IMG/VR virus record: IMGVR_UViG_2734482789_000006
Length of the DNA: 29,156 nt
Reading direction: 5' to 3' (one strand)
DNA from: a virus
Taxonomy: Duplodnaviria; Heunggongvirae; Uroviricota; Caudoviricetes
How positions within the stretch are numbered: position 1 is the stretch's first letter; each line of letters begins with the position of its first letter. A program made the position numbers and the translations under genes. Shown here piece by piece: positions 1 to 21,266 of this stretch. A model generated the notes under the pieces. The model was not told the DNA's origin. It made no database searches and worked only from the letters and a program-made list of their open reading frames with translations.

Positions 1-669
1 CTATATGCGTTTGATTACCACTAGATTCGACATAATCTTTGGCTCTTTCATCACTGGTACAGCCAGTTGAGGGGTAAATGATACATTGAACGGTAAGGAG
101 GGGCACCCGATGCCTTGTTCACGACTTCTTCTAATCATCCAATTCTCAGCTAGCCAACAAAAATTCCCATAAAATTTTATGTTAACACTCCGTCGCGCAG
201 TCAAGTATGGTTCAAATTCCTTAGCCAAAAAAATCACTGTAGAACCAAATACTTTGTACAGGAACATCTCATCATACAAACCATTTCTAATAGCATTTGC
301 ACATCGTTCCCATTCATTAAAAACTGTCATTAATGCTCGAGCTTCTTTCGTTTGCCTTACCTCATCACGCCCCCACATTTCAAGGGGAATTATTTTCCTA
401 AGCTTCAAAATGTTTAGCATCGTTTGCCAAGCATCTTCAACTTTATCGCTCCGCTTATATGATGATTCAAAATCAAGTGAGTTTTTTTCACGAGAGGTTT
501 GTCTCTGCTTTCCTATGCTTATAATCGCTATGGCCGCAGCAATGAGAGCAGCGATGATTGTACTATAAAATGTAGGATTGTCTTTCCAAAGGCGTGCCAA
601 CGTGCACAAGATTGTATGTAAGAAATCTTGATTCATTTCACTTAATCCATAAACAAAAGAGGTGGGCAT
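1..669 (-). CDS. Accessory membrane protein of unknown function (222 aa, one predicted transmembrane helix); candidate prophage moron, possibly superinfection exclusion or defence
   Basis: Complete ORF whose TAG stop is window bases 1-3. The protein has a hydrophobic stretch (TFYSTIIAALIAAAIAIISIG) followed by a charged soluble domain. The region is visibly AT-rich compared with the phage body. A GAGGTGGG Shine-Dalgarno-like sequence lies about 7 nt upstream of the ATG at 667-669. I recognise no family; function is inferred from position and composition only. Confidence 0.55.
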   Translation of the reverse strand: MPTSFVYGLSEMNQDFLHTILCTLARLWKDNPTFYSTIIAALIAAAIAIISIGKQRQTSREKNSLDFESSYKRSDKVEDAWQTMLNILKLRKIIPLEMWGRDEVRQTKEARALMTVFNEWERCANAIRNGLYDEMFLYKVFGSTVIFLAKEFEPYLTARRSVNIKFYGNFCWLAENWMIRRSREQGIGCPSLPFNVSFTPQLAVPVMKEPKIMSNLVVIKRI

Positions 670-1362: not shown

Positions 1363-3066
1363 TCAGGCAATTATATTCTGATACTTGCTCCGGGTCTGCC
1401 CGGCTTTCGTCGCCGTCTGGGTGAACGCGTCGGCATTAGTTGGCGTCCCAACGGTGGGGTGCGAATGGCTCGCGCATTGCTGTGCCAGTTCTGCCAGTAA
1501 ATCAATGGTATCCAACATCATGGTCAGGGCGTTGATACTCTCACTGCCAATATGGACAGTTGCCCCCATGACCTGCTGACCGCCAGCGGCCACTGATTTA
1601 CGCAGTGCGGCAATTTTCTCTGTCAGGCTTTCGCCAACCTCCACGGCTACAGCACCGCCCACTTTAGTGGACTGCTGTCCTGCTATGTCCGTTTCTTCGT
1701 TTCCTTCAATACTGGCCAGCCTGTTACCTTTCACCGCCTGGCTATAATCACCGGCACTTACCTGCTGGATGGCTCCGGCCAGCAATGTGGTGGTTCCCAG
1801 TACCGTGGTTTTATCCGTGGCTTTCACCGTGGTTTCACGGCTGACCAGTTCGCGCTGTTCCGTATCGGCTTTTACGGTTCGCGCCATCGATGTTTCACTG
1901 ATGGTCTGATCGGTCTGTCTTACCCAGTCTCCTGCCTGAGTCACCCGCTGGGAAACTTCTTCCCGCTGCTGCTGCAATTGCTCACCGGGTTTAACGTCCG
2001 GCAGGCTGGTACCATCCGGCAGCGTCTGCCTGATAAAGGGTTTATCCGGTCTGCCTCCCGTGAATGCAACCTCAACCAGCGTCCCTTCTGGCGGAAACTG
2101 AAACATACCTGAATCATTCCCGGCCATTGGCACCGGCAGCTGCACCGCTGAGTAAACAGGCGTCTGATTGTCCGGGTTTCCGTCTGCGTCAAGCAGCTGA
2201 ACGTCCACGGCGTAACGTGGCCGGAAGGGATCGGCAAAATTACCGCTTTTTACCGGCTCTGAATGCGCCACGACTCTGGCCATCTTTGGCAAATGAAGCC
2301 CGGATGCCAGTTCCGGGTAATGGCTTTCAATCTGCCGTTGTGCTGGTGTTTTCTGCAAAGGTTTACCCGTTGCGCGGTTTCTCGGCGTCCATGTGATCGC
2401 CATCGTGTCATTAGTCAGGTGAACTTTAGTCACGCGTTCACCGTTCATCTCCACCCCTGGCCGCATAGTCTGGATCATTGGTAATGTCACAGAGTTACCA
2501 CCAGCAGCCCCCTGGCTGAACTCTGAAGGGATTTCTACGGAACGACCGGCAAACAATGATTTTTCTGCGCCTCCGACGTAAAGCGAACCATCAGGCAACT
2601 GGTACCAGATGTAATCCTGGATACTGAACGCCCTGCCCAGATTGTTCAGCAACTGATAGCCGGTACCGTTATGGGTAAAATGTGGGATAGGGGTATCGCT
2701 GTACTCTGCATCAGGCACACTGACCGTGATCCCGCTGTTTTCTTCCAGCCAGCTGGCAACCTCGCGTAAAGTTGGATGTTGAAACGAACATGGCCACATC
2801 CTTTCAAACACACCTACCAGCTCACGAATGAACAGACGCTGAAAACCGTTTTCAGCGGGCTGCGATCGCTCCACATACCCCGTAAACCAGCGCAAAAGCA
2901 GATCGGTATACCCCACATCCAGCCGCACCAGTTTTCCGGTGTAATCGGTTGTTGTCTCTGCGGTGATGAAGCCCCGGCCGCAGCTGTTCAGCTCCAGTAC
3001 CAGACTAGCATCCACGAGGTGAACTTCATCCGTTGAAAGGTAAAGGCGTTTTACTGGTTTCATCAT
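1363..3066 (-). CDS. Large tail-operon protein, function unassigned (possibly baseplate hub/spike-like)
   Basis: 567-aa ORF, last gene of the tail operon, start overlapping the stop of the upstream gene. The C-terminal third is rich in Thr/Gln/Gly/Ala, as in spike or fibre proteins. GC content resembles the phage body. No motif I can name with confidence. Confidence 0.45.
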   Translation of the reverse strand: MMKPVKRLYLSTDEVHLVDASLVLELNSCGRGFITAETTTDYTGKLVRLDVGYTDLLLRWFTGYVERSQPAENGFQRLFIRELVGVFERMWPCSFQHPTLREVASWLEENSGITVSVPDAEYSDTPIPHFTHNGTGYQLLNNLGRAFSIQDYIWYQLPDGSLYVGGAEKSLFAGRSVEIPSEFSQGAAGGNSVTLPMIQTMRPGVEMNGERVTKVHLTNDTMAITWTPRNRATGKPLQKTPAQRQIESHYPELASGLHLPKMARVVAHSEPVKSGNFADPFRPRYAVDVQLLDADGNPDNQTPVYSAVQLPVPMAGNDSGMFQFPPEGTLVEVAFTGGRPDKPFIRQTLPDGTSLPDVKPGEQLQQQREEVSQRVTQAGDWVRQTDQTISETSMARTVKADTEQRELVSRETTVKATDKTTVLGTTTLLAGAIQQVSAGDYSQAVKGNRLASIEGNEETDIAGQQSTKVGGAVAVEVGESLTEKIAALRKSVAAGGQQVMGATVHIGSESINALTMMLDTIDLLAELAQQCASHSHPTVGTPTNADAFTQTATKAGQTRSKYQNIIA

Positions 3067-3611
3067 TAACCCAAAGCATCATTGACGGGCTTCAGCACCT
3101 TGCGTTCAAACCACGTCAGTTTTTCTTCATCCTCTCCGGCAGACTGGCCACCGGACTGTACCGCACTACCGGCAGTCTGTTTTTTTGCGGTCGTCTTACC
3201 TGTTGCCCTGGCCTCTCGCTTTTCCTGCACGCTGATATGTTCCGCCAGTGTGAATGTCACCAGCCAGGACATTTTCCCGTCCTGCTGGGGCGCATCCAGC
3301 ATTCCGCTGAACGTTGCTTCACGAAAATTAACAGCACGGGCAACTTCATGCGCCACGCGGTACTTCTGACGATTACCACTGGCATCGGTAGCACTGGCCA
3401 GCTCAAAAATACGCTTCAGTATTTCAGGCTGTTTAAAAGGTATTTCACCGCTGATCCGCAGTTCCTTTCCCTTTGCTCCCTGCTCTGATTTTGTTGTGGC
3501 GCTGGTCTGGCCGGACTGATCTTTATCCTGAAACTGCTGTGAAACGGTCACCCGCATGTTTTTCAGCTGGATGGCCTCGCCATTAAGCGCCAGTGTCGGG
3601 ATCGAAGTCAT
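3066..3611 (-). CDS. Hypothetical tail-operon protein (181 aa)
   Basis: ATG at 3609-3611 with an AGGGAA SD-like sequence upstream; overlaps the upstream gene by 29 nt and the downstream gene start by 1 nt. No recognisable domain. Confidence 0.45.
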   Translation of the reverse strand: MTSIPTLALNGEAIQLKNMRVTVSQQFQDKDQSGQTSATTKSEQGAKGKELRISGEIPFKQPEILKRIFELASATDASGNRQKYRVAHEVARAVNFREATFSGMLDAPQQDGKMSWLVTFTLAEHISVQEKREARATGKTTAKKQTAGSAVQSGGQSAGEDEEKLTWFERKVLKPVNDALG

Positions 3612-4308
3612 GAATCATTCCCTTTATTCCATCAAGATTATCACCAACCAGCATCATGGCTGCGGTGTAAACGGCAGACTGCTGCGGAATGTCCTTCATC
3701 AGTTCCAGTAACGTGGTGCCGGTGTCTCCGCTGGCAGTAAAAACCCACGCTCTGGCACTTTTTCCCTGTAAATCATTCAGGCCGCTGACCACGTCACTGA
3801 TAAGCTGGTCACGCAGCTGCGTGAACTCGCCCAGCTGTTTTTTCAGCCCTTCGATATCAAACCCGGCCCCCGCCGCCTTTTGTGCCTGGCTGATTGCCGC
3901 AGCAGATAAAGCAGCCCTGCTGGTTGGTACAGACAGCGGTATGGGCGCAGGTAACGCAGCGGCGGTTTTCGCAGGGATCTGCATCTTTTCAATAGCCAGC
4001 GCTGCGGCAGATTGCGCCAGCCGTTTGACCTGCGTGAATGCCGGGGCGGGGAATATCCCGACCAGGTTATTCAGGCTGACCATAAAGTTTTCCTGCGTCT
4101 GTCCGGTGACCATCATAATCACCACGTCCGCATTCCCTCCAGTTCCGGCCAAGCGTTCAGCAAGATAGCGAACGGCATTAACCGGACTGAGATATGCCCC
4201 GTTCGCTGTCTGCTGTCCCAGCCCATAAATCCACGGATGCGCAGGGACGATCGAACAGTTCAGCGCAGCAACAGAATCCGTAAAGGCCAGACGTGCTTCA
4301 CGCCACAT
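3583..4308 (-). CDS. Hypothetical tail-operon protein (about 241 aa)
   Basis: The ORF runs to 4344, but the ATG at 4306-4308 (MWREARL...) has a GGAGGTG SD 9 nt upstream and overlaps the tail-fibre-assembly stop by 11 nt, so I take that as the start. Function unknown. Confidence 0.45.
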   Translation of the reverse strand: MWREARLAFTDSVAALNCSIVPAHPWIYGLGQQTANGAYLSPVNAVRYLAERLAGTGGNADVVIMMVTGQTQENFMVSLNNLVGIFPAPAFTQVKRLAQSAAALAIEKMQIPAKTAAALPAPIPLSVPTSRAALSAAAISQAQKAAGAGFDIEGLKKQLGEFTQLRDQLISDVVSGLNDLQGKSARAWVFTASGDTGTTLLELMKDIPQQSAVYTAAMMLVGDNLDGIKGMIHDFDPDTGA

Positions 4309-4885
4309 TTCCAGGCACCTCCGGCCACACAATTTCCGGCGCATCTTCCGGTTGAATACGATTCAGTAAAACGCGGTATTTTTTCCATGCGGTAAGCAGC
4401 AGTGCTTCTTCTTCGGTTGCCATGTCTAAATCAACGGCATCCTGCAATGTGGCAATGGCGTCATTGGCCTGTTTAAGCAGGCTTTTCTTTTCGACGTCTG
4501 CCTCGCTGACTAATACAATTCGCATGGCCTCCGCATCATCCACCCACGCCTTACCATTCCATTTTTGCCAGGCATTAGCCGGTGCTAACGTGGTTGTCCC
4601 TTCCGGGTACCCCCCTGGCTCGGTGATCACCACTTCATTACCGTTTTCTGTATCAAACACCACCTCACCACGATGATCCTCACGGGAAATCCATCTTTGC
4701 TTCTCTGAATCAAAAATTGCCACAAACCCCACTTTGATTACCGGTGGTTTTATTGTTGTGCAGTTGGCTGGCAGTCCAGTATGCGCAGGAATAAAAGCAT
4801 CACCCGAACCAATAAATTCATTCGTGTCGGAACGCAGGTTATAAACAGTAACTGTTTGATCGGTTTCACTCATTTTAAAAGTCAT
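4298..4885 (-). CDS. Tail fibre assembly chaperone
   Basis: 195-aa protein immediately after the fibre gene with a 1-nt stop/start overlap; size and position match tail fibre assembly proteins of P2 gpG type. Confidence 0.7.
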   Translation of the reverse strand: MTFKMSETDQTVTVYNLRSDTNEFIGSGDAFIPAHTGLPANCTTIKPPVIKVGFVAIFDSEKQRWISREDHRGEVVFDTENGNEVVITEPGGYPEGTTTLAPANAWQKWNGKAWVDDAEAMRIVLVSEADVEKKSLLKQANDAIATLQDAVDLDMATEEEALLLTAWKKYRVLLNRIQPEDAPEIVWPEVPGNVA

Positions 4886-6459
4886 TATGCGAGTCTCACT
4901 ATGTAGTTAAATGCAATATTCTTAACGGTCGTTTCTGCGTTGCCCGACGCGGCGATGGTAATGGTGTGACTGTGTGCGCCAATTGCTACGGTATGAGAGT
5001 GAGCGCCAATACCTACGGTGTGATTGTGTGCGCCAATAGCTACGGTGTGTGCATGGTTTCCCGCCGAACTTGTAGTAGTCGCACCCTTATCCTGTCTGGG
5101 TACACCATAATCCGAACCGCCAGACTGCACACTAACGGCAAACCCGACAGTGTGCGTATGCGCCCCCGTTGTATTTGTCGTTTTCGTGCCATAGTCAAAC
5201 GTACTCGCCGTTTTAGTACCGTAATCAAACGAGGATGTTGATTTCGTCCCCAAATCGGTACTGGATGCACTGGCTGTGTGTGAGTGGGATTTATTGCCAT
5301 CATCTTCATAGGACAAAACTTCGCGGCCGTCTGGTTTCCCTTTGATTGTTCGGCGGCGCATGTCAGGAATAACACCCGACGGATACGCGATGGCCAGTAA
5401 AGGATATGCAGCCTTATCAAAAAATTGTCCCTGCATAATTGCCCACCCTGCAGGCGGGATATCCGTTGACCACGGAAGCGGCACACCAACCGGCAGAACA
5501 TCACTACGACTTAAAACCGCCAGTTCACCCAGTTCCAGACTTTTTCTGGCTTTCGCTTTGTCGTTAACATCAGCAAGGTTTGCATCCTTACGCAAAAAAT
5601 CGCTGCTGGCCTGCTGTTCTCCCAGGCTACCTTTTGGCCGTAGATCCGTGATGTTGCCATCCACATCAATGCTGGCCACAGCAAACACATAATGCTGAAC
5701 TCCGTTCTGAACGTAATCAGCAAGGTTTGCAGCCACCGTGATTTTGCTCTGCACATTCCAGACACTGGTCAGCGTCCCTGTCCAGCACACATCCAGCCAG
5801 ACTTTTACCGGCTTTGTCGTCACCGTAATATTCTGATTCGCAGCCAGTGACGTACGAAGTCCAGCCACATACCCCGTGCCTTTCGTGACAAAAAACTGAT
5901 TGCCGGTTTTGGCTACCAGATACCCGTTACCCAAAAACGCAGCCGCACCATAGATATCCATATTTTCAAGGCGCTGGCGCTCATCCATTCCGGCCATACG
6001 CGCGGTGAAATCAATCTGCCAGGTCTCAGCGGGCGTATTAATCCCGGTTTCCGTTTGTGCGCCGTTGTACTCCATCAGAAACGAGCGGGTCAGCACGTTC
6101 CCCTGTTGCCCTTCTTTTGTTTTCAGTTTCTGCTGTGATGGTGCATGGACAATCATTGCCAGCGTACCGCTGGCCTTATTGAGCAGACCGATCCAGTTAA
6201 AACTGAAATCACCCACATCTGCGCCCAGCACTACGGAATAAACCACCCCGTTTTCATTCACCACACCGGTGCGGGTAACAGATTGCCGGTGAACAATCTG
6301 TGCTGTCGGGGGCAACGCTTCATCGCGGTCAACAGGTGTATCCGGGTTTAAATCCGGCACACTGGCAAAAACAAATTCGTCCAGTAGTACCGGTTCACCC
6401 GTTGCACCCTGCTGTGCTTTCCAGTTTTCAAACGCCAGTGTGATGGCTGTCTGTGACAT
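4885..6459 (-). CDS. Tail fibre protein
   Basis: 524-aa protein with C-terminal tandem repeats of G-A-H-x-H-T-V-x-I and (S/T)FDYGTKT, sitting between the baseplate I-like gene and the assembly chaperone. Confidence 0.8.
4949..5056 (-). repeat. 27-bp imperfect tandem repeats (3-4 copies) inside the tail fibre gene
   Basis: Units gcgccaattgctacggtatgagagtga / gcgccaatacctacggtgtgattgtgt / gcgccaatagctacggtgtgtgcatgg at 4976-5056 plus a degenerate copy upstream; they encode the A-H-x-H-T-V-x-I-G repeats. Confidence 0.6.
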
Positions 6460-6469
6460 AAAAACCTCC

Positions 6470-7063
6470 TTACAAACTCGCGCTGAATGTTGCGCTGCGG
6501 GCTTCCGTCCCTGCTAACGTCGCCGGGTAAACCACATATTCCCCCTGATCCCACCCGGCCCTGATAACCAGGCTTTCAGACGTGATCACCTCAAACTGAT
6601 AACGGCGGCATGTTCGCCCGTACTGGCGGATTATCTGGATCAGCAGCTGCGTGTTGTCTGCAATCTGGCTGTCTGTAACCCGAACAAGAATTACATCCCA
6701 GTCGATATCCGGTTGCCGTTCTAACAGCTCCACATAACCAATTCCCAGCCGTTCAAAGATATTGATAAACCCCTCTACTGAACCGGCATCCCGCGCATTC
6801 ACGAAGGCAAAAGCCACGCGTTTGCGGAACAGGGTCAACGGTTCACCATCAAAGCGGGTAATATCCCGGTCATAAGCCAGCAGGTTCAGTAATGCCGGTG
6901 TACACGTCAGCGGATCAAACTGATTCATTGGCCAGGTAACCCAGCCGTAAACCTCAGCCCAGAACCGCCGCGCCGTTTTCAGCAATTTCCCCGGTTCGCC
7001 TTTATTCATCCAGGAAGGCAAGACCATCCCGGCCAGCTTTTTCATGAACTCATTCATTCTCAA
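6470..7063 (-). CDS. Baseplate/tail protein, gpI-like by position
   Basis: 197-aa ORF between the baseplate J-like gene and the fibre gene, the position of P2 gpI. Start uncertain (ATG candidates at 7063, 7057, 7045). Confidence 0.5.
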
Positions 7064-8288
7064 TATTCACCGTCAGTGATTTCAGACGCGGCACGCTCAG
7101 TTCACTGGTAATGTCTCCCAGCGAAAATGTCAGTGATTCCGTCTGCGCAAAGGTTTTATGAATTTCCCGCCCCAGTTGCGAAAAGGAAAACCGTGAATAT
7201 GGCCACGTCTTTCTGACGTCATAATCAGCATTTTCACGAAAGGCACAGCGGATCATGTTTTCAATGCCGCCCTTCAGCGTTTTCACTTCTTCGTCACTGA
7301 AGTTGTTCAGATTTTTGACATAGACCGTGACGACCAGATTGTGAAGCGTTTCCGGCATGGGATAGCACTGCATATCATCACCATGCCCGTGGTGTCCCTG
7401 CGTGTTGATATAGTCATTCACTGCATCCACGAAAGGCGCTGATGCCACCCCACTGTCCAGTAATAAAAAGGCGTTGGCTGTTCCTGGCCCCCTCGGTGCT
7501 TCATGCTCAAAGAAAATCCGATCGATACTCAACCCGGCAACACTGGCGATCATTGAGCGATAAACCGCATCAGTGTGGTAATTCCCCACCAGATTGAACT
7601 GATTGCGGCAACGCTCGCGCAGTTCATCATCACTTTCCTCGTCAGCCCCCGGCACGGTCAGCCAGTTTTCCTCACTGGCCACATGGCTGATACCACTGAC
7701 CGCCACCGGCAGAATGCGGTAATATCCGGGCGCAAGGTTATACGCACCCCCGGTGCCGGTGGCTTTCACCGGTAGTAATGCGCTGGCCGCACCAGAAGCG
7801 ATCACCACATCCTCAGTGGTCGCCAGCTCATAAACTCGCCCGTTAATGCGTTCTGTCTGGATAACCGTCCCGGCTTTCACCGTCACAACGGCCTTTGCAT
7901 CTTCTTTGAAGAAGCGGATCACCCCCTGTGCAGCGCTCGCCGGTTTTGCCGTGACGTTCACCGCCCAGGCCAGCAAACGCAACATGCTCCCGCTGGCTGT
8001 GGCCACAAACATATTGGCCAGCACGGTTAACACCAGAACGTCTTTAAGCCACATCACCGGGGCGGTCACAATGGCGGTGATTAATCGCCAGAACGGTGAC
8101 ATTCGGGATGTATTGGTGATAATTCCCTCATCCGCTGCAATCGCATTGAAGCGTTCCCGCACTTCGGCTTCCGTTACCGGCATACCGCTGTCCTTCACCA
8201 CTTCTTCAAAATCAACCTGCGGTTTTTCCGTCATAAATCCACCTGCGCAGAGATCCCGCCAAAATCGTATGTACTCGCGGTTACCCAC
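7050..8288 (-). CDS. Baseplate J-like protein
   Basis: 412-aa ORF (probable start MTEKPQ at about 8237) between a small baseplate protein and the gpI-like gene; size and order match the baseplate wedge protein (gpJ / gp6 family). Confidence 0.6.
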   Translation of the reverse strand: MGNREYIRFWRDLCAGGFMTEKPQVDFEEVVKDSGMPVTEAEVRERFNAIAADEGIITNTSRMSPFWRLITAIVTAPVMWLKDVLVLTVLANMFVATASGSMLRLLAWAVNVTAKPASAAQGVIRFFKEDAKAVVTVKAGTVIQTERINGRVYELATTEDVVIASGAASALLPVKATGTGGAYNLAPGYYRILPVAVSGISHVASEENWLTVPGADEESDDELRERCRNQFNLVGNYHTDAVYRSMIASVAGLSIDRIFFEHEAPRGPGTANAFLLLDSGVASAPFVDAVNDYINTQGHHGHGDDMQCYPMPETLHNLVVTVYVKNLNNFSDEEVKTLKGGIENMIRCAFRENADYDVRKTWPYSRFSFSQLGREIHKTFAQTESLTFSLGDITSELSVPRLKSLTVNIENE

Positions 8289-8560
8289 AGCCGCTTCTGA
8301 CTTTCTTCACTGATTTCCACCGTACCCGGCACAATGCGTTCATCATCTTCAATCAGTAATTCCATGCTGGTAAAAATATCCGCTCTCATTGTCGGGCTAC
8401 GTTCGGCAATTAATTCCGTCGCTAACCCACTTTCAATAATGGAATGAATAATGTCCTGCCCGATACTTTTTCGGTTATTACATAATTCAGGTTCATTACC
8501 GGTATTCAGAACAAAGTCACCGCCCTGAATCAGCAAATCGATATAAAGAACATCACTCAT
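8231..8560 (-). CDS. Small tail/baseplate protein (gpW/gp25-like position)
   Basis: About 109 aa from MSDVLYIDL, starting directly after the tape-measure stop and overlapping the J-like gene start. Assignment is by position only. Confidence 0.4.
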   Translation of the reverse strand: MSDVLYIDLLIQGGDFVLNTGNEPELCNNRKSIGQDIIHSIIESGLATELIAERSPTMRADIFTSMELLIEDDERIVPGTVEISEESQKRLWVTASTYDFGGISAQVDL

Positions 8561-10524
8561 GCGCCAAGCTCCTGCCATTCCATAAGCTGGGATGGAGAAA
8601 GTGCTTCTTTGGTATGGAAATGCACTTCACCAATTTTCCGGCTGTTATCGGTTACGGATTTACTGTTGCTGCTGATTGTTTTGCTGATACCACCTTTATC
8701 CACACCTTTTAAATCACCACCCGTTGACAGTGTATTTCCGGTTAATGGCTGCGTGGTTTCACTGACCAGTGAAATATCCACGCCGGGAATTTTATTCAGT
8801 TTCTGAACAATCCAGTTCCACGACTTAAGAAATCCCCCTTTGATTGACTTCCAGACATTATCAAACAGCGACATAATGCCGGAGGCCATCCCCTTTAATG
8901 CTTCAGACGGTGAAAATCCTGTCAGCAAAGAAATAAAGCTGTTCCATCCTTCACTGATATATTGCCAGGCTGAAACAAAGATCCCCGCCAGCCATTTCAC
9001 CACGGCGGCACATGTCTGGAAGGCTCCAGTATTCATCACCGCTGCTTTTATTGTGTCCCAGTGCTTAACCAGCAGATAACAACCGGCAACCAGTAGCGCA
9101 ATGGCACCAATCACAAGCAGGATCGGCCAGCTCATCAGGTTGATACCAATTCCGGCCATTATTGCGGCCATGCGTACCGCCAGTAACGCACCGCGCAAAA
9201 ACTTCAGCGTGGTATTCCAGGCGATTACCGCCATTTGCGCCAGCCAGACAGTGACAGTGTAGATTTTCGTAACCGCCGTTAACGCCACCCAGATCCCGCG
9301 CAATCCCATCATGATGAATCTGGATACCCCCATCACGATATTGGCCACCGCACCCACGGCGGCAAAGCTCAGGAGTGCCATCGACGCATAACCAATCACA
9401 CGGGCAATGTTAGGAAATAACTGCATCCAGCGGGCAAAGGTCTGCCCCATATCGGCCAGGCGATTCAGAACCGGATACAGCACCGGGATCAGCGTCAGCC
9501 CGATCACGGTCTGAATGGCTTTCAGGATTTGCACAAAGCGATCCCACGGCTTAACCATTTTTTGTGCCATTTCCTGGGTACGCTTCAGACCGTCCGCGCC
9601 GCCCAGTTCGGTGATGTTCCGCTGAAGTAACGCGACATTGCCGTAAAGCTGTTTAACCACTGCCGAACTGTCACCAAAGGCTGCATCCAGTTCCGCCTGG
9701 GCTTTCAGGTTCCCTTCAAGGCTTTTGCCATATTTGCCCTGCAACTTGATCAGCATTTCAGGCATGGACAGCATTTTGCCGGTGGAGTCAGTAAAGGACA
9801 GCCCCAGCTTTTTAGCGCCATCAATCGCACCGGTCATAAACCCTTCATAGGCGCTGCTGGCTTCCGTTCCCAGTGTCCGCTGAAGTTGCCCCAGAACGGC
9901 CAGCTGTTCATCCAGTCCCACGCCGTAGTTAGTCCCTACGCCGCGCGCACCTTCCATCAAATCCTTGATAGTGGCCATTTCTGTGCCAAAGGTTTTGCGC
10001 ATATAAACCATCTTGCCCGCCAGCTGCTCGGCAAATTCAACCTTGCCCAGTCTGGCGGCATCGGCGGAAAAGTTACCGAACATCTGCCCCATAAATTCCG
10101 CCGTGTCCGCCGCTGTGGACTTGAGCGCAAAAGCCAGGGTATTGGCGATTTTCGTCACCTTCGGCAGTTCATTACCCGTCAGTCCGGCAATGGAAGCGTT
10201 AATATTTTCCGTGGATTTAACGAACTCCACCGCGCTGGCACCATAGGTTGTACTAAAGCGCAAGGCATCACGCTGAACGGTCTTAAGCGCGGAATCATCA
10301 ATCCCTTTTGCGGCGGCATCATTCAGCGCGTCATACATTTCAATTGCTGGTGATAACGCGCCCTTGATCGCCATCCCGATACCTGCCAGCGCCACTGCAC
10401 CGCCGCCAATCTGCATAAAGGCCGCTTTTGATTTTTCCGCAAAGCCGGTGACGTTACCCTGCACCTGTTTTAACGGGCGGGATAATTTATCAATCAGGCT
10501 TAATGTAAAATCTAATTGTTTCAT
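8557..10524 (-). CDS. Tail tape measure protein
   Basis: 655 aa; helical N-terminal half, several hydrophobic segments in the C-terminal half; directly downstream of the chaperone frameshift cassette. Confidence 0.85.
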   Translation of the reverse strand: MKQLDFTLSLIDKLSRPLKQVQGNVTGFAEKSKAAFMQIGGGAVALAGIGMAIKGALSPAIEMYDALNDAAAKGIDDSALKTVQRDALRFSTTYGASAVEFVKSTENINASIAGLTGNELPKVTKIANTLAFALKSTAADTAEFMGQMFGNFSADAARLGKVEFAEQLAGKMVYMRKTFGTEMATIKDLMEGARGVGTNYGVGLDEQLAVLGQLQRTLGTEASSAYEGFMTGAIDGAKKLGLSFTDSTGKMLSMPEMLIKLQGKYGKSLEGNLKAQAELDAAFGDSSAVVKQLYGNVALLQRNITELGGADGLKRTQEMAQKMVKPWDRFVQILKAIQTVIGLTLIPVLYPVLNRLADMGQTFARWMQLFPNIARVIGYASMALLSFAAVGAVANIVMGVSRFIMMGLRGIWVALTAVTKIYTVTVWLAQMAVIAWNTTLKFLRGALLAVRMAAIMAGIGINLMSWPILLVIGAIALLVAGCYLLVKHWDTIKAAVMNTGAFQTCAAVVKWLAGIFVSAWQYISEGWNSFISLLTGFSPSEALKGMASGIMSLFDNVWKSIKGGFLKSWNWIVQKLNKIPGVDISLVSETTQPLTGNTLSTGGDLKGVDKGGISKTISSNSKSVTDNSRKIGEVHFHTKEALSPSQLMEWQELGA

Positions 10525-10721
10525 TCAGTGCCTTTAAATGCTTTTGCCACACCATTGGCCACGGCTATTCCCGTATATTCCCAGTGACGATTATCCAGCC
10601 AGATAGCGGCGGCGATATCATCAACGGAATCCTGACCATGCGGCAAATAATGACGGCGAAGAATTAAATATTGTTCGAGTCCATTTCTTTCGATTTCATG
10701 GACTCGCTTTGTCAGTTTTTT
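10521..10721 (-). other. Programmed -1 frameshift extension of the tail chaperone
   Basis: Slippery heptamer A-AAA-AAC (plus coordinates 10715-10721) is in the correct zero-frame register immediately before the chaperone stop. The -1 frame is then open for 65 codons and ends at a TGA (10521-10523) that overlaps the tape-measure ATG (10522-10524). Confidence 0.6.
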
Positions 10722-10972
10722 ACTTCAATTTCCAGTTCAGGCGCATAAATATCATTTACTTTGCCAACCAGTTGAAGTGCAGCCCCCGGACGCTTTAATA
10801 CTTCTGCCAGTGCTTCTTTACTTTCCGTTGCCACAATTCGCGTCAGATAGTTATGTGCCGGGGCAACTTTATTATCCATCGCCATTTCATTAATAAATTT
10901 GTTGTAGGCAGTCTGATTTGGCTCAAAAACAATATCAACACCACAAACACACAGTTTAATTTGTTCCATCAC
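10712..10972 (-). CDS. Tail assembly chaperone (zero-frame product)
   Basis: 86-aa ORF directly upstream of the tape measure gene, ending ...EIEVKN-stop on the slippery site. Confidence 0.65.
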   Translation of the reverse strand: MMEQIKLCVCGVDIVFEPNQTAYNKFINEMAMDNKVAPAHNYLTRIVATESKEALAEVLKRPGAALQLVGKVNDIYAPELEIEVKN

Positions 10973-11255
10973 TCATACTCTCTCTTAAATTAATTTCGTC
11001 CACTAACTGATTATGACGCGCAGCACACTGCCCATAAATTTCAGGATAAATTGTCAGTAATTCTGCTGCGTCTTTTCCTGTCGTACCGTTCAGGCGCGGC
11101 AGCTGCGTGGTGCATTTAGTTTTCAGGTTTTCCTGATAACGCACGTTCGGTACCGGCTGCGGCGCTGTTGTACATGCTGACAAACTCATCAGACAGACAA
11201 CGATTGGTAAAAACGGGCTTAAGTATTTCCGTGCGTATCTCTCGCGGTGCCACAT
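10956..11255 (-). CDS. o-spanin (Rz1-like outer-membrane lipoprotein)
   Basis: Basic n-region, hydrophobic core, LSAC lipobox, then a proline-rich mature part (CTTAPQPVPNV); starts inside the Rz-like gene in another frame and runs past its end. Confidence 0.6.
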   Translation of the reverse strand: MWHRERYARKYLSPFLPIVVCLMSLSACTTAPQPVPNVRYQENLKTKCTTQLPRLNGTTGKDAAELLTIYPEIYGQCAARHNQLVDEINLRESMSDGTN

Positions 11256-11454
11256 TTTTTAACGCCTCCAGTTTATCTTCCAGCACTCTGGCCGAATCAC
11301 TGGCAATACCCTGCATTGCTTTTCGCGATTCATTACCGGCCACCTGCGCCGCTGTATTGATTGCCAGCTCTAAGCTGTCACGCCGCCAGTCAGCGGTCAG
11401 CCAGCCCCAGACAAACGCCAGCGCCACCACAACCAGCCACTGCCCGCTGCTCAT
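11116..11454 (-). CDS. i-spanin (Rz-like)
   Basis: 112 aa with an N-terminal transmembrane segment (WLVVVALAFVWGWL) and a helical periplasmic part; start overlaps the endolysin stop by 1 nt. Confidence 0.65.
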   Translation of the reverse strand: MSSGQWLVVVALAFVWGWLTADWRRDSLELAINTAAQVAGNESRKAMQGIASDSARVLEDKLEALKNVAPREIRTEILKPVFTNRCLSDEFVSMYNSAAAGTERALSGKPEN

Positions 11455-11795
11455 CAGCGCACCCCGTTATGTTCCAGACTGAAATGATTGCCATCCGGTC
11501 TGGATTTGAAGCGTCCGCCCCAGGCACCACCCAGTGATTCCCAGTATTCCCCCAGAGGCAGATAATCTTCTGTGCGGGTTTTGTACTGACCGTTCACGAA
11601 CAGATTGAAATCCACCGCCAACCGCTGGGTGTGCAGACTGTTAGAAATGCCGCTGCCTTTCTTCGCATTCAGCGCGGCCTGTTCTGGTGTACGGTACGCT
11701 TCACCAAACGTCAGCCACATGCCATTTGCATTGGCATATTGAATTAACAACGCAATCATTGATGTAAACCGTTGCTGTTTTTCACTCAGGGTCAT
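11454..11795 (-). CDS. Endolysin, zinc metallopeptidase (peptidase M15 / LAS type)
   Basis: SLHTQRLAVD (H-x6-D) and DGNHF motifs typical of L-alanyl-D-glutamate peptidase endolysins. Start taken at MTLSEKQQ (ATG 11793-11795); the listed ORF extends upstream to 11912. Confidence 0.7.
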   Translation of the reverse strand: MTLSEKQQRFTSMIALLIQYANANGMWLTFGEAYRTPEQAALNAKKGSGISNSLHTQRLAVDFNLFVNGQYKTRTEDYLPLGEYWESLGGAWGGRFKSRPDGNHFSLEHNGVR

Positions 11796-12084
11796 TTGTC
11801 TTGCTCCCGTTCTGCTTTTCCGCTGCACGTCTGCGCAGCCACACTTCCACCGCTTGATAACCGGCAATCCCCAGCGCCGCCCCCAGCCCCTGAATGGCCA
11901 GCGGGCTGGCATCCGGGATCTGAATCAGCACCGCCCCGGCCACCACTGAAACCAGACTGCCCAGGATCACGCGACCGGCAAACAGGCGCGGCGTGATGGG
12001 GTCATTACTGGTCAGCACATTGCCGATGGCAATCAGTGCGCCAATGATCAGCAGTGAATAAAGGCTCTTTTCATGCTCCTGCAT
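11782..12084 (-). CDS. Holin (putative)
   Basis: 100 aa, two hydrophobic transmembrane segments and a charged C-terminus (RRRAAEKQNGSKTNDPE), immediately upstream of the endolysin. Confidence 0.6.
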   Translation of the reverse strand: MQEHEKSLYSLLIIGALIAIGNVLTSNDPITPRLFAGRVILGSLVSVVAGAVLIQIPDASPLAIQGLGAALGIAGYQAVEVWLRRRAAEKQNGSKTNDPE

Positions 12085-12093
12085 CCCTGCCCC

Positions 12094-12549
12094 TTATCCG
12101 ATCAGGTTTTCTGTGGCTTCCGCTTCCAGATACGGCACACCGTTGATGTTGACGAATTTCGGACTGGTCACGAAATATTTGATTTTGTGCGTGGTCACAC
12201 CGCCACCTTTCGGATCAATATCCAGCAGGTTGCTGACCTGCAATTTATTGCCGAACGTCTCCACCTTCATTTCTTCGCTACTGGCTTTGGCATAGAAAAG
12301 AAAATCAAGTGGGGGAAGCCCACGCCATGAACCCGCTGCACGGGCTTTGGCTGTCAGCACCTGAAGTGTTTTTGAACTGACTTCAATTTCCCCCTCAGCA
12401 GCAACATCGCCATCCACATACCCGTCAGGGACGCCACGCGTCTGGGCGGCAGCGCTGTTATCCGTAATATCGAGCGTGATTTTCTCGATATGGATCAGAT
12501 CGCCGTCCATATAGGTGTCAAACGACATACCCGAAATACGTTTAGTCAT
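12094..12549 (-). CDS. Tail tube protein (putative)
   Basis: 151 aa directly downstream of the sheath gene with overlapping stop/start; canonical sheath-tube order. Confidence 0.55.
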   Translation of the reverse strand: MTKRISGMSFDTYMDGDLIHIEKITLDITDNSAAAQTRGVPDGYVDGDVAAEGEIEVSSKTLQVLTAKARAAGSWRGLPPLDFLFYAKASSEEMKVETFGNKLQVSNLLDIDPKGGGVTTHKIKYFVTSPKFVNINGVPYLEAEATENLIG

Positions 12550-13673
12550 GCTGTGGCCTCCAGACTCGCATCCAGTAACAGACTGATGGTGATTTGCAGC
12601 GGCACTTCCCAGGTGCGTACCACAATGTAAATATCCACCGCCTTTTTGTTTTTCCAGACAATGGTCACATCACCATCCTGCGGCGGCTTCACCTCACCCG
12701 GAAATGACACACCGTTAATGCTGGCCGCAGTGGACATTTCACGCAGTGGACGGGCAAACAGTGTCTGATGTGCGGCGATACTTCCCGGCGTACTGTTCAG
12801 CGAGCGATCCGCGATTTTGCTGATAGCCAGCAGACGAACACGGCGGGCAGCTTTATCCGCAACGCGCAGGGTTTCAATCGACTGGTAATCGCCGCCCTCA
12901 ACATCCAGCGTGCGGCCATCTGCCCAGTAAAAGCCGTCATAATCCGGGTACCACATCGGCACACTGAAACGCTGTGCTTCAAGCGCCTGAAGTGTGGCCA
13001 GTTCCAGCACTTCTCCAGTGCCATCAACCGGCATTTCATCACTGCCCAGATTCATCAGAGCACCGGTTTTAACCCGCGCCGGACTGTCAGCAATGGTTAC
13101 CGCACGGCTACACAGGCGACCAGCCAGCACGCCCGGTTCATTTCCCCACAGGCGGGGAACCAGCTGCACCGCCTTTTCTGCAATGCCATCCTGAAGGGTG
13201 GCCATGCGTACCAGATAATCCGCCTGGGCTTCTTCGTCCTGCATTCCCTGCGCAGCCAGGATGAACCACACCCAGCGGCCATACTTTGAAATCAGGGTGG
13301 ATCGTAACGTCACGGCCTGATTTACCTGCGCTTTAGCGGTCACATCGTCAGACAGCACCACGCCTTCCACAGAGCACACTACCTGCGCGGCCAGAACCGC
13401 TTTCACCCAGGCATCTGCCTCCGCGTCAGCTGGCAGGACGTGAATGAATCCCCACCAGTTCTGGCCAGCGTTCGCCAGCGCAGCCAGAACATCATTTTTC
13501 AGCGGACTGGCTTCCTCACCCAGCAGTGAATCAAAATCACTCTGGGCATTCACCGCCAGCGTTTTCCCCACATTTTTGGTACCCGTACCGATAAACAGCA
13601 GTGTGCGTTCCACCTCATTGGTTTCACCCAGCAGCTGATTTACCTGGTTTACGGTCACAATTGGCCAGGTCAT
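12546..13673 (-). CDS. Tail sheath protein (putative, not P2 FI-like)
   Basis: 375 aa, first large gene of the tail module, followed by the tube gene; no visible resemblance to P2 FI as I recall it. Confidence 0.6.
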   Translation of the reverse strand: MTWPIVTVNQVNQLLGETNEVERTLLFIGTGTKNVGKTLAVNAQSDFDSLLGEEASPLKNDVLAALANAGQNWWGFIHVLPADAEADAWVKAVLAAQVVCSVEGVVLSDDVTAKAQVNQAVTLRSTLISKYGRWVWFILAAQGMQDEEAQADYLVRMATLQDGIAEKAVQLVPRLWGNEPGVLAGRLCSRAVTIADSPARVKTGALMNLGSDEMPVDGTGEVLELATLQALEAQRFSVPMWYPDYDGFYWADGRTLDVEGGDYQSIETLRVADKAARRVRLLAISKIADRSLNSTPGSIAAHQTLFARPLREMSTAASINGVSFPGEVKPPQDGDVTIVWKNKKAVDIYIVVRTWEVPLQITISLLLDASLEATA

Positions 13674-14377
13674 GCTTTCCCCTTAATATCCTGCGCTTTA
13701 ACGTCCCAGCCAAAGCCGATGGCCTGAAGCTGACGCGCCAGCGCCTTGTCAAATTCATCATCATTCATGCCCAGAAACACACGGGCAGGAAGATCCACTG
13801 TCCAGCTGGTTTTCACGGCTTTACCGCTGAGTTTTCGAATCAGCAGCCCCGCCTGGCTGTACGGCATCGTTTTGGTGATTTCGCCCAGTGTGGGCTTTTT
13901 CCATCTCTTACCGGTTTTCACCCGGTATCCCAGCGCCCGTAATTTTTTGGCCTGGGCAGGCGTCGCCATTTTCCCGGCCTCTGCCTTCCGTGGCTGATTA
14001 CTGCGGCTGACCTTTACGCGCATTCCGTTTTGTTGCGCGTAACCCACCGTTCCGGCTGGTACCGGCGTTTCCCCGTTCCGGTATCCGCCGCCCTGTAAAT
14101 AGATCCGCACAGTCTGAATTTCTGGCATTTCACGGATATGCAGCAGCTTTGGCAGGTTGCGCAGCATCTTCCCTTTGCGTTTTGTCTTACGTCCCGGCCA
14201 CTTCTGGCCATCCGGAGATTCCTGATTGCGCACATGTCGTTTTGCCGCAGCAATCACGCCATATTTGGCCAGACGCCAGATCAGACGCTGTCGTTTTCTC
14301 GGCGGCAGCTCCATGCTGGCCAGTGCCTTGCGCAATTCGGCCAGCTGTTTTTTATTCAGCTCGCCACCGGCAATCAT
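13670..14377 (-). CDS. Virion morphogenesis / tail completion protein (putative)
   Basis: 235 aa with a strongly basic central region, between the head-completion region and the sheath gene; coupled to both neighbours. Confidence 0.45.
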   Translation of the reverse strand: MIAGGELNKKQLAELRKALASMELPPRKRQRLIWRLAKYGVIAAAKRHVRNQESPDGQKWPGRKTKRKGKMLRNLPKLLHIREMPEIQTVRIYLQGGGYRNGETPVPAGTVGYAQQNGMRVKVSRSNQPRKAEAGKMATPAQAKKLRALGYRVKTGKRWKKPTLGEITKTMPYSQAGLLIRKLSGKAVKTSWTVDLPARVFLGMNDDEFDKALARQLQAIGFGWDVKAQDIKGKA

Positions 14378-14880
14378 TCGCTATCCCCCACCGGCGCCCC
14401 GGCCTCATCCACGCTGTAAATACTGGCGGTCAGTGCCGTCCAGATTTCAGGCTCAACCAGTGACCAGCGCTCACCCCGCCACGGAATAGCCCCGTTTTCG
14501 TCCTGCCTGATCACCAGTTCTTCCACCATCGGAACAGTCAGCACCACAGTGGCCACTTCCTCATCCTCCACCGACACATCCCAGTCCGGTTCGGCTTCAC
14601 TCAGCCCCACTTCATCCAGTAGTTCCCTGTCAGCATCATCCAGCCATGCCGCCAGTAAGGACATAAGCAACTGCGGCGGGCACAGGCGATACGGGAAACG
14701 CTCCCAGCTCAGAACCGCGTCATATCGGATCACCGCCTGGCGATATTGTCCCAGCCCGTAATCCTTCGCCGCAGGAATGAACTTCATCTCATCCAGCACA
14801 CTGTCAAATGACTTCATTGCGCGGGGCGGGACGTTCTCTTTAAAAAATGCGGTCAGGCTCTGGATCTGCGTCTGGCTCAT
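14374..14880 (-). CDS. Head-tail joining / tail completion protein (putative)
   Basis: 168-aa acidic protein, ATGA overlap with the gpL-like stop; assigned by position only. Confidence 0.4.
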   Translation of the reverse strand: MSQTQIQSLTAFFKENVPPRAMKSFDSVLDEMKFIPAAKDYGLGQYRQAVIRYDAVLSWERFPYRLCPPQLLMSLLAAWLDDADRELLDEVGLSEAEPDWDVSVEDEEVATVVLTVPMVEELVIRQDENGAIPWRGERWSLVEPEIWTALTASIYSVDEAGAPVGDSE

Positions 14881-15329
14881 ACTTTTTTCACCGTTGCCCG
14901 TTTCAACCCTTTCATACGGCGGATAACCACCGATGCTTCAGCCAGTAACCCGGCGCGGGTTTCCATGCTTTCCTGTCCCGGATGGGTATCACGCCGCCCG
15001 ATGGTGGCGAACTCACCCAGCAGATCCGCTTTTGCCCTGGCAAAAACGGCCTTCATGTACTGGGCACACAGGCTGTTCAGTCCGCCCATTTTTACGCCTG
15101 GTACCTCTGCCGCCAGCGTGTGGCCTTTCGCTTTCCAGCTGGCTTCCACGTTTTCCAGCTCCGCATTCACCTCCGCCACTGCCGCAAGCAACGCCTGGCT
15201 GATGGTGTCAGCGTCAATATCTGGCGGTAGTGACCGCTGCGCCTGAAAATCCTTCAGATTCAGGTCTGGCCAGAATCCGTTATTGGTCAGCGGTTCATCC
15301 TGATAATCCAGCGGCTTTCCGCTAAACAT
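14877..15329 (-). CDS. Head completion/stabilisation protein (P2 gpL-like)
   Basis: Position after the small terminase subunit, as for P2 gpL. Start taken at MFSGKPLDYQ (ATG 15327-15329) with GGGGGA SD 4 nt upstream; the listed ORF extends to 15380. Confidence 0.6.
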   Translation of the reverse strand: MFSGKPLDYQDEPLTNNGFWPDLNLKDFQAQRSLPPDIDADTISQALLAAVAEVNAELENVEASWKAKGHTLAAEVPGVKMGGLNSLCAQYMKAVFARAKADLLGEFATIGRRDTHPGQESMETRAGLLAEASVVIRRMKGLKRATVKKV

Positions 15330-15425
15330 AAATCCCCCGAAAAAGGCGGACTGGCCGGTTTCCACGGCGCAGTTACACACAATGTGTTCTGCCCTCCACC
15401 GCGTCCGCCTGGCTTGCGGTAGTCT

Positions 15426-15623
15426 TTAAAGCTGAACTGGGGTCAGTTCACCCTCATCAAACCAGGCATCTACAGCCCGGCCATCAGCAGCCAGATAGTG
15501 GATCAGGTATTGATTAGTGCAGTTGGTATACTCTGCACGGGCTTTCACATGCCCTTCTTCACCACTGATAGTAACTGCCACTACCTGCCCCAATTCATGT
15601 TTGAATTTGATACGTGTTGCCAT
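15426..15623 (-). CDS. Small hypothetical protein (65 aa) between small terminase and head completion genes
   Basis: ATG 2 nt after the TAA stop of the gpM-like gene; P2 has no gene at this position. Confidence 0.4.
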   Translation of the reverse strand: MATRIKFKHELGQVVAVTISGEEGHVKARAEYTNCTNQYLIHYLAADGRAVDAWFDEGELTPVQL

Positions 15624-15625
15624 TT

Positions 15626-16330
15626 TTAAACTCCGTTTTCGAGGCGTCGAATACGGGCGGCAATCGTCTGCCGTGTAGTCTTTACGCCAATTTTTAAGTA
15701 GTGTTTTTCTGCAATGGCCAACAGTTGATCGGCCTTTTTCAGCGTTTCAATATCATCCACGCCCGCCGCCGTTTTCTGGCCATCGTCATTGCGTAGCAAC
15801 TCCAGACCGGCAAACTTGAACCATTTGGCCGTCACCTGCTCATGCAGTCGCCAGGTGTTTGCCACCCGCTCAAACGTGCGGGTGAAATAAGGCTCAACAC
15901 TTTCCCCGCGCCCTGCGGTTTCCTGCGCCCATTCCAGCATCGTATCCGCCACAAACGTGGGGAAATTGCTGCGCAACCGATCCGGGGTTGCCTGCTGCTG
16001 ACTGATTGCAATGTCAGCCCAGTCCAGCGCCTTATCCAGATCGCCCACGTCAAACAGCCAGATAACACACCAGGCGAAAACCGGATTTGCATACACCTGG
16101 CCGCTCTCCAGATAGGCTTCCACAGTAGGAACCCAGCGCGGCAACAGCACATCGCGTTTATATTCGACGCGATCGGCGATGGTAGGCAGACTTCGAACGT
16201 GTTCCACATCCGTTTCCAGCGCCCTGATCAGCAGATGCATACTTTCTGTGGTTTCCAGTGCCTGGCTGCGCTTCAGCTTTTGTTCCATTGCAATACGCTG
16301 GCTGTGACGCTGCGCGGGGGAAAGTGCCAT
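15626..16330 (-). CDS. Terminase small subunit (P2 gpM-like)
   Basis: 234 aa directly after the major capsid gene, in P2 O-N-M-L order. Confidence 0.7.
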   Translation of the reverse strand: MALSPAQRHSQRIAMEQKLKRSQALETTESMHLLIRALETDVEHVRSLPTIADRVEYKRDVLLPRWVPTVEAYLESGQVYANPVFAWCVIWLFDVGDLDKALDWADIAISQQQATPDRLRSNFPTFVADTMLEWAQETAGRGESVEPYFTRTFERVANTWRLHEQVTAKWFKFAGLELLRNDDGQKTAAGVDDIETLKKADQLLAIAEKHYLKIGVKTTRQTIAARIRRLENGV

Positions 16331-21216: not shown

Positions 21217-21266
21217 GGCGAAACAGGCTAAAATCCAGGCATCATTTAACAGCTGGAGCATGGAAT

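Follow-up and report, generated by a model that had tools for sequence, protein, structure and literature searches.

The window analysed here, a 29,156-nucleotide (nt) stretch of tailed-phage DNA catalogued as IMG/VR record IMGVR_UViG_2734482789_000006, encodes a P2-family head together with a contractile tail very different from that of P2. This pairing is a trait of the HP1 branch of the family Peduoviridae that has been recognised since 1996, and the finding is thus real, but already known. The difference from the P2 tail is very probably inherited by the whole HP1 subgroup, and does not record an event in this genome. A first-pass annotation had interpreted positions 1363-14880 as a mosaic, in which exchange of the whole tail cassette had joined P2/186-type early and head modules to a non-P2 contractile tail. 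That account does not hold for this genome, which is not a P2/186 head with a swapped-in tail, the head genes being themselves of the HP1 branch; modular exchange does survive as a published hypothesis for deep time, and is evident among close relatives in the conflicting head and tail trees of phages of the ESSI2_ev239 type.

The tail and embedded lysis genes of the window are as follows, the roles given for individual baseplate proteins being putative.

1363-3066, minus strand: hub-spike fusion protein, HP1 orf35-like (gpD and gpV equivalents in one polypeptide); 40% identity over 565 amino acids (aa) to HP1 orf35; phrog_2258 'baseplate protein'
3066-3611, minus strand: HP1 ORF34-family baseplate protein, possible gpU analogue; Pfam HP1_ORF34, E 1e-54; 40% to HP1 orf34
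3583-4344, minus strand: HP1 orf33-like tail/baseplate protein, no role assigned; 27% to HP1 orf33, E 8e-18; phrog_1677 (unknown function); no match in a Pfam scan
4298-4885, minus strand: tail fibre assembly protein (Tfa); C-terminus 44% identical to P2 G
4885-6459, minus strand: tail fibre; N-terminus 44% to HP1 orf31, C-terminal part matching other fibre PHROGs
6470-7063, minus strand: gpI-like baseplate wedge protein; 57% to HP1 orf30; weak Pfam Tail_P2_I
7050-8288, minus strand: Baseplate_J wedge protein; 51% to HP1 orf29; Pfam Baseplate_J; phrog_6
8231-8578, minus strand: DUF2590 protein; 60% to HP1 orf28; Pfam DUF2590
8557-10524, minus strand: tape measure protein; Pfam PhageMin_Tail; phrog_28; 32% to HP1 orf27
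10521-10972, minus strand: tail assembly chaperone; Pfam Phage_TAC_10; 44% to HP1 orf26
10956-11255, minus strand: o-spanin lipoprotein; PHROG lysis family
11116-11454, minus strand: i-spanin; PHROG lysis family
11454-11912, minus strand: M15 peptidase endolysin; Peptidase_M15_4
11782-12084, minus strand: holin; PHROG lysis family; 56% identical to P2 Y
12094-12549, minus strand: tail tube; Pfam Phage_HP1_Orf24, E 8e-64; phrog_1182; 59% to HP1 orf24
12546-13673, minus strand: contractile tail sheath; Pfam DUF2586, E 2e-135; phrog_907 'tail sheath'; 52% to HP1 orf23

In HP1, the corresponding genes run Q, P / O, N, M, orf20 (L), orf21 (R), orf22 (S), orf23 (sheath), orf24 (tube), hol, lys, orf25 (spanin) and orf26 (chaperone), and continue with orf27 (tape measure), orf28, orf29 (J), orf30, orf31 (fibre), orf32 (Tfa), orf33, orf34 and orf35. 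The late region of the window, on the minus strand, reproduces HP1 orf15-orf35 gene for gene, including the position of the lysis genes between tube and chaperone, and of the hub-spike gene at the very end. The counterparts of HP1 orf23, orf24, orf26-orf30 and orf33-orf35 all match HP1 by tblastn, and Pfam families specific to HP1 (Phage_HP1_Orf24, HP1_ORF34, DUF2586 and DUF2590) are present. Shared with HP1 as well are an Ogr-like open reading frame (ORF) after the portal gene, a CI-type repressor, an A-type replicase, an A_AAA_AAC frameshift in the chaperone gene and the fused hub-spike. HP1 (Hpunavirus) is nevertheless a distant relative, with protein identities of only 27-60%, a holin and endolysin unrelated to those of the window, and no match to CII; the Int, CI and A proteins of the window are closer to 186 than to HP1.

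The comparison with P2 gives a very different picture. When every window protein was searched against P2 by tblastn, matches were obtained to Q, P, O, N, M, L, the holin Y, the C-terminus of G, orf91, A and Int; the C-terminus of G aside, none of the P2 tail proteins was matched, and the tape measure reached T only at E 0.17. The tail genes did not, therefore, turn out on alignment to be clear P2 homologues, the outcome that would have overturned the first-pass annotation. The families differ too: the window sheath belongs to phrog_907, as against phrog_23 for P2 FI and phrog_165 for the Mu sheath, L; the tube to phrog_1182, as against phrog_55 for P2 FII and phrog_185 for the Mu tube; and the chaperone to Phage_TAC_10, as against phrog_103 for P2 E. 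The tape measure and T have in common only the generic phrog_28, and no counterparts of P2 U, D, V, W or X were found in the window by PHROG, tblastn or hhalign. What the tail does share with P2 is gpR, gpS and Baseplate_J (phrog_65, phrog_26 and phrog_6, all common to P2), whereas separate gpU, gpD, gpV, gpW and gpX are lacking, hub and spike being fused.

Gene order also departs from that of P2, which reads L-X-lysis-R-S / V-W-J-I-H-G / FI-FII-E-T-U-D-ogr, whereas the window reads L-R-S-sheath-tube-lysis-chaperone-tape measure-DUF2590-J-I-fibre-Tfa-orf33-orf34-orf35. The lysis genes precede R and S in P2, but lie inside the tail operon in the window; ogr follows D in P2, but lies beside the portal gene in the window; and P2 has four late operons, whereas the window is almost gapless from O to the hub gene. 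The earlier view that sheath, tube and baseplate are unlike P2 FI, FII and D, and differently ordered, was thus well founded.

The head and neck genes are P2-family genes in both content and arrangement.

13670-14377, minus strand: gpS-like neck protein; phrog_26 (= P2 S); hhalign 95% to P2/186 S
14374-14880, minus strand: gpR-like tail terminator; Pfam P2_Phage_GpR, E 3e-23; phrog_65 (= P2 R)
14877-15380, minus strand: gpL-like head completion protein; Pfam Phage_GPL; phrog_71 (= P2 L)
15626-16330, minus strand: TerS; Pfam Phage_term_smal
16334-17371, minus strand: capsid; Pfam Phage_cap_P2, E 1e-98
17420-18220, minus strand: scaffold; Pfam Phage_GPO
18383-20158, plus strand: TerL; Pfam Terminase_6N/6C and gpP-like Terminase_5
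20155-21216, plus strand: portal; Pfam Phage_portal

Portal and TerL are divergent from scaffold, capsid, TerS and gpL, and the head proteins match P2 Q, P, O, N, M and L at 27-43% identity by tblastn. With P2 and 186 the window thus shares the head block Q, P / O, N, M, L, as well as R and S, Baseplate_J, the Ogr/Delta activator and the A replicase; with 186, and not with P2, it shares the Int-CI / Apl-CII switch (Int 62% identical). Integrase, switch, replication, terminase, portal, scaffold and capsid genes do belong to P2/186 families, as had been proposed. Both ends of the tail interval suggested at first, 1363 and 14880, are real gene ends on the minus strand. However, R and S are P2-family neck proteins and belong with the head, so the module boundary lies at the S/sheath junction and not at 14,880, and the non-P2 block is 1363-13673.

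Within the P2 family, the head genes side consistently with HP1: identities to HP1 and P2, respectively, are 49% and 33% for the portal, 51% and 43% for TerL, 40% and 29% for TerS, and 39% and 31% for gpL. When the portal was ranked by tblastn over all records of the comparison set (50,697 records of cultured phages), phages with HP1-type tails (YenM324, Pasteurella, Vibrio K139-like, C5a and Pseudomonas phi3-like) stood at 39-65%, followed after a clear step by phages with P2-type tails at 35% or less. Neighbour-joining (NJ) trees with bootstrapping were built for seven HP1-tail and seven P2-tail genomes, tail type being taken from the genes after gpS or from the list of sheath matches (by genus for an unannotated Ralstonia locus). 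HP1-tail and P2-tail genomes separated in 200/200 replicates in each of three head data sets, namely TerL plus portal (901 columns), capsid (321 columns), and scaffold plus TerS plus gpL (612 columns), and within the HP1 subgroup the NJ topology of sheath plus tube was that of the head. The sheath family is also narrowly confined, with a homologue in 76 of the 50,697 phage records; the 60 listed are genomes or contigs of 22-38 kb of ESSI-2, HP1, K139, phiO18P and phi3 type, the weakest of them at 39% identity (E 4e-66), and no case of an HP1-type sheath away from a P2-family head occurs among these 60. Because the head trees split by tail type, the sheath and tube topology agrees, and the sheath family is so confined, head and tail have descended as a pair from the base of the HP1 subgroup onward.

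These data bear directly on whether the genome is a recent chimera, in which a phage of the P2/186 lineage retained head and early genes of its own, and took up a full tail cassette from an unrelated contractile phage, for example a Mu-like one. Such an origin would fit the lack of sequence similarity to P2 FI, FII, E, U, D, V and W, the different gene order, and early genes that are closest to 186, but it is contradicted by the head-gene trees, which place the head itself in the HP1 branch, and by a tail that is colinear with HP1, and that has diverged from HP1 about as far as the head has. The listed sheath-carrying records are all P2-family-type genomes. A Mu-like tail was rejected, as all window proteins searched against Mu by tblastn matched only Tfa, and homologues of the Mu L sheath, M tube and gp43-48 baseplate were not found by the same search. 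A recent chimera is accordingly regarded as extremely improbable.

Inheritance of the tail by the whole subgroup agrees with the literature. HP1-like viruses, the HP1 genome having been described by Esposito et al. in 1996 (cited in PMC2771037), were defined within the Peduovirinae by Lavigne et al. in 2009 (PMC2771037), who noted that six capsid genes are arranged as in P2, whereas the other structural genes, mainly those of the tail, generally show no similarity to P2. E. coli prophages with HP1-cluster late genes, and the reassortment of regulatory modules, were described by Nilsson et al. in 2011 (PMC3448106). More recently, all genera of the Peduoviridae were divided by their tail proteins into an HP1 and a P2 group, with Seongnamvirus (ESSI-2) in the former, and it was proposed that one of the two subgroups gained an ancient paralogous tail module (PMC10612066, 2023).

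The opposite view of the deep difference is that there was no exchange at any depth, the HP1-type tail being a vertically inherited P2-family tail that was rearranged and diverged past sequence recognition. The same 2023 study found P2 counterparts of HP1-group tail proteins only by HHpred, at ~13% identity (PMC10612066), yet usually ahead of those of T4 or Mu; R, S, J and, weakly, I share families with P2, and the functional set is the same apart from gpX. Within the HP1 subgroup, however, tails are at least as conserved as heads (50% tail versus 41% head for HP1; 68% versus 62% for YenM324), and yet the heads retain 27-43% identity to P2 while the tails show none. Since tails evolve no faster than heads within the subgroup, faster tail evolution does not explain the missing similarity to the P2 tail, and this relative-rate argument would favour replacement over simple divergence of the deep tail. 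The published sheath timetree places the sheath split far deeper than the portal split (PMC10612066), and the cassette demonstrably moves among relatives (see below). Purely vertical descent is therefore considered unlikely, though less so than a recent chimera.

The closest relatives of the window are the Escherichia phages ESSI2_ev015 (NC_049395), ev040 (NC_049393) and ev129 (NC_049394), members of the Peduoviridae, genus Quadragintavirus. In a megablast search of window 1-25000 against the phage set, they matched 94% of the query at 96-97% nt identity, whereas Cronobacter phage ESSI-2 matched at 76%. The match extends over window 1175-25046, with late region and replication genes in identical order, and the ev015-type sheath is 99.7% identical to that of the window. 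The annotation of ev015, whose RefSeq lineage is Peduoviridae; Quadragintavirus, is colinear with the window ORFs. The window has a GC content of ~52% (37% at the left end) and contains no tRNA genes. The ICTV applies a genus criterion of ~70% genome-wide nucleotide identity. Identity multiplied by coverage against ev015 is roughly 87% (1175-25046 at 96%, 25030-27813 at 86%), above the genus line of at least 70%; because it falls under the 95% species line, the window is, on sequence grounds, probably a separate species or variant. There is thus little doubt that the window represents a temperate myovirus genome, as a prophage or in circular permutation, of the HP1 subgroup of the Peduoviridae and of the genus Quadragintavirus (ESSI-2-like, enterobacterial).

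Exchange of the tail within this group became apparent on comparison with a further relative, ESSI2_ev239 (Evevirus), which has the same gene organisation, but a primase-type replication module, and another repressor/switch and integrase.

13700-13900, no strand: recombination junction between the tail cassette and the neck-head module, seen in relatives; identity step versus ESSI2_ev239

Lysis genes aside, the sheath-to-hub proteins of ev239 are 81-99% identical to those of the window: 94-99% from hub through J; 81-85% for DUF2590, tape measure and chaperone; and 90% for tube and sheath. In the neck, identity is 61% for gpS, 48% for gpR and 60% for gpL, and in the head 52% for TerS, 71% for capsid, 46% for scaffold, 74% for TerL and 64% for portal. 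Protein identity therefore steps from 90% to 61% between sheath and S, and the breakpoint is directly visible in the nucleotide comparison, where identity falls from 76-92% to 50-65% at ~13,800, and the megablast match ends at 13,805.

The same pattern recurs in IMG/VR. Tail proteins of ev239 and of 15 IMG/VR loci share 72-94% identity with those of the window, but neck and head proteins only 45-75%; in ev239 and in these 15 of the 80 IMG/VR relatives, tail identity exceeds head identity by 16-28 points, whereas all other loci lie between -7 and +10. (These relatives were found by sheath search and include only close ones, at 77-100% identity, and so are uninformative on the fringe of the family.) In head and neck trees the ev239-type clade falls outside the window-type clade (200/200), whereas in the sheath plus tube tree it nests inside the window-type clade at two places: ev239, L035 and L053 group with the window and L064, and L060 groups with L070 and L081 (170/200). 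This tree conflict, together with the step at S/sheath, argues that the sheath-to-hub cassette has been exchanged between head lineages of enterobacterial HP1-type phages, with its breakpoint at the S/sheath junction, and the two placements would indicate at least two transfers. On grounds of parsimony, the recipients are more likely to have been the Evevirus-type heads.

Such discordance could in principle be mimicked by chimeric assembly, of IMG/VR contigs or of ev239, or by purifying selection acting more strongly on tails, and nt 1-123 of ev239 are indeed a 100% copy of window 6152-6274, within the fibre gene, which suggests some assembly or terminal oddity in that record. However, the same S/sheath step is present in 15 independent IMG/VR contigs from different samples as well as in ev239, the change at the nucleotide level is abrupt while other relatives are uniform across the same genes, and support for the tree conflict is good (head placement, 200/200; L060 with L070 and L081 in the tail tree, 170/200). 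An artefact is thus very unlikely. With moderate confidence, we favour a sheath-to-hub cassette that behaves as a discrete unit, swapped repeatedly at a junction fixed between gpS and sheath, which is also the deep P2/HP1 boundary, with at least two independent transfers onto Evevirus-type heads. If this is true, gpR and gpS neck proteins that are only 48-61% identical would still work with the same sheath and tube.

Smaller units appear to move within the tail. The lysis cassette (10956-12084, minus strand) lies inside the tail operon, at the same position as in HP1, YenM324 and Pmp5, and pairs an endolysin of the M15 peptidase type with a holin resembling P2 Y, neither of which matches HP1. 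Against ev239 it is 57-83% identical, and so more divergent than the flanking tail genes (81-90%); it looks like a nested sub-cassette that may be exchanged independently. At the fibre, window 4758-4934 is 94% identical at the nt level to TfaE of Erwinia phage RF1, which would indicate exchange of a host-range cassette. Repeated HxH motifs are found at the C-terminal end of the fibre (4885-5100, minus strand), and are reminiscent of the metal-binding HxH repeats of other phage fibre tips.

Several points weigh against the overall interpretation given above. The hhalign probability of sheath and tube against P2 FI and FII was below 2%, placing them outside the FI/FII families, and between HP1-type and P2-type profiles only S (95%), R (43%) and I (14%) were recovered; but the profiles were thin and missed even J against J, so that these negatives are weak evidence. 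The trees are NJ trees on Kimura distances for 14 taxa, rather than maximum-likelihood trees with topology tests. The direction of the tail swaps, the polarity of the deep P2/HP1 tail difference and the age of the exchanges are to be read as inferred. The gpW-like and gpU-like baseplate roles come from gene position and from HHpred alignments reported by others: the DUF2590 protein may be a gpW/gp25-like sheath initiator, given its position and the alignment of HP1 orf28 to P2 gpW (PMC10612066, Table S1), while the link of HP1 orf34 to gpU was flagged as uncertain in the same table. The AlphaFold2 model of the sheath, from a shallow alignment, is of low confidence, with a predicted local distance difference test score of 62 and TM (template modelling) scores of 0.3-0.4. 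Finally, no 12-mer is common to both window ends that could represent attachment-site (att) direct repeats, so prophage status is not proven, and no cos sequence was identified in the window. A position near ~1172 is suggested for cos because the ends of the linear ev015 record map there, just past the hub gene and far from the portal; in HP1, cos lies near attP and int, and not beside the portal gene (PMC2771037).

Despite the quality of the model, the predicted structure is consistent with a sheath fold. The 24 top Foldseek matches in the PDB were all entries for phage contractile tails, contractile injection systems or diffocins (E 5e-7 to 4e-4, probability 1.00), the named sheaths DSY3957 and Lin1278 among them. 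A sequence search of the PDB found no relatives of sheath or tube. The sheath of ESSI-2, 81% identical to that of the window, has been modelled as a one-domain sheath (PMC9230969).

At the other end of the cassette, the Phage_base_V OB domain of the hub-spike protein scores 23.1 bits, just under the Pfam cutoff of 23.8, and residues 413-508 match the T4 gp5 beta-helix (E 6e-7). An OB-fold domain and a gp5-like beta-helix in the last tail protein fit the published fusion of gpD and gpV homologues in HP1 (PMC10612066, Table S1).

The chaperone gene contains the slippery site of a programmed -1 frameshift, A_AAA_AAC, at 10715-10721 (minus strand), just before its stop codon. The -1 frame extension of ~64 codons, the stop of which overlaps the tape measure ATG, accounts for the 188-nt 'gap' between the two genes, and the arrangement parallels P2 E/E'. 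In HP1, the heptamer (GTAAAAAAC) and the -1 extension (LTERVASIERNGL...) are both conserved after orf26. The frameshift carries no annotation in ev015, and in ev239 part of the gap is called as a separate 'hypothetical protein'.

The late activator gene had been noted as lying beside the portal gene, and this observation proved correct.

21213-21536, plus strand: Ogr/Delta zinc-finger late activator; Pfam Ogr_Delta, E 9e-20; phrog_603, the family of P2 Ogr

Its ORF is directly 3' of the portal gene, its start overlapping the portal stop codon, which hints at co-transcription of ogr with a late operon. An Ogr-like ORF on the same strand as the portal match, and within ~670 bp of it, is present in all eight HP1-subgroup genomes examined, as against none of the seven P2-subgroup loci; it includes a previously unannotated ORF in HP1 itself (10447-10635, minus strand), directly downstream of the portal and 41% identical to the window Ogr (E 1e-13). 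The position of Ogr beside the portal is a trait of the whole HP1 subgroup. Because there are almost no intergenic gaps from scaffold to hub (17371-1363, minus strand), a single late transcription unit of ~17 kb is suggested. The P2 Ogr box, TGT-N12-ACA, occurs six times in the window against 7.4 expected, and not in the P/O intergenic region (18221-18382), so this pattern scan yielded no late-promoter motif.

One further small gene lies between TerS and the neck genes.

15426-15623, minus strand: 65-aa ORF between TerS and gpL; phrog_8618; no Pfam match

It is present in ev015, where it is labelled 'L33', and in ev239 (73%); HP1 and YenM324 lack it and show just a short gap at this position.

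The early and lysogeny genes occupy the right-hand part of the window.

21836-23857, minus strand: A replicase; 46% to 186
23854-24729, minus strand: Dam-class methylase; Pfam family
26346-26849, minus strand: CII; Pfam Phage_CP76; 44% to 186
26880-27134, minus strand: Apl/Cox-like protein; Pfam family
27195-27818, plus strand: CI, 186-type; Pfam Phage_CI_repr and Phage_CI_C; 43% to 186
27820-28860, plus strand: Int; 62% to 186 Int

Int, CI, CII and A are all more similar to 186 than to HP1 or P2, and the NJ tree of Int places the window with 186 (199/200), breaking the split seen in the head trees. Compared with ev015, identity is 96% in the late region and the replication genes but only 86% in the early left region (25030-27813); the exonuclease gene of ev015 is absent; and int is replaced, with only 128 nt matching, which implies a putative attachment site other than that of ev015. 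Given the placement of Int beside 186, and an int gene and cargo that differ from those of ev015, the lysogeny module looks exchanged, and the discordance demonstrable in this genome sits there.

Between the integrase side and cos is a variable cargo slot, which in ev015 holds an acetyltransferase gene and three ORFs, and in the window a DUF4760 ORF within a low-GC (37%) segment, 1-1030.

1-669, minus strand: 222-aa DUF4760 ORF; N-terminal hydrophobic segment, by eye likely a transmembrane helix

A megablast search of 5,426 complete E. coli genomes gave no match to the first 1030 nt, which are also missing from ev015. The DUF4760 ORF could be a moron or a defence candidate; PADLOC gave no match for it, or for two early ORFs.

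Taken together, the virion consists of two blocks adapted to each other: the head and neck, of the P2 family, and an HP1-type contractile tail encoded directly downstream. The first comprises TerL and portal, transcribed one way, and scaffold, capsid, TerS, gpL, gpR and gpS, transcribed the other. The second is made up of the DUF2586 sheath, the Orf24 tube, the embedded lysis genes, the -1 frameshift chaperone, the tape measure, a gpW-like/J/I wedge, the fibre with Tfa, orf33, orf34, and the fused gpD-gpV hub-spike. The Ogr/Delta activator encoded after the portal presumably turns on the late genes, while the early programme depends on an Int-CI / Apl-CII switch of the 186 type together with an A-type rolling-circle replicase. 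The recently mobile pieces appear to be the sheath-to-hub cassette and the sub-cassettes for lysis and fibre, together with the lysogeny module and the cargo.

As a discovery the window carries little weight, being a close relative of published coliphages with an architecture that has long been known. It does add a corrected S/sheath boundary, a conserved chaperone frameshift, an Ogr position common to the subgroup, and direct evidence of tail-cassette exchange, and it bears on whether an HP1-type tail is ever found away from P2-family heads, a question posed in PMC10612066. Neck and head seem to travel together, whereas the tail cassette, lysis genes, fibre tip, integrase and cargo are mobile, and the S/sheath boundary may thus offer a natural junction at which P2-family hybrids with a changed tail or host range could be built.

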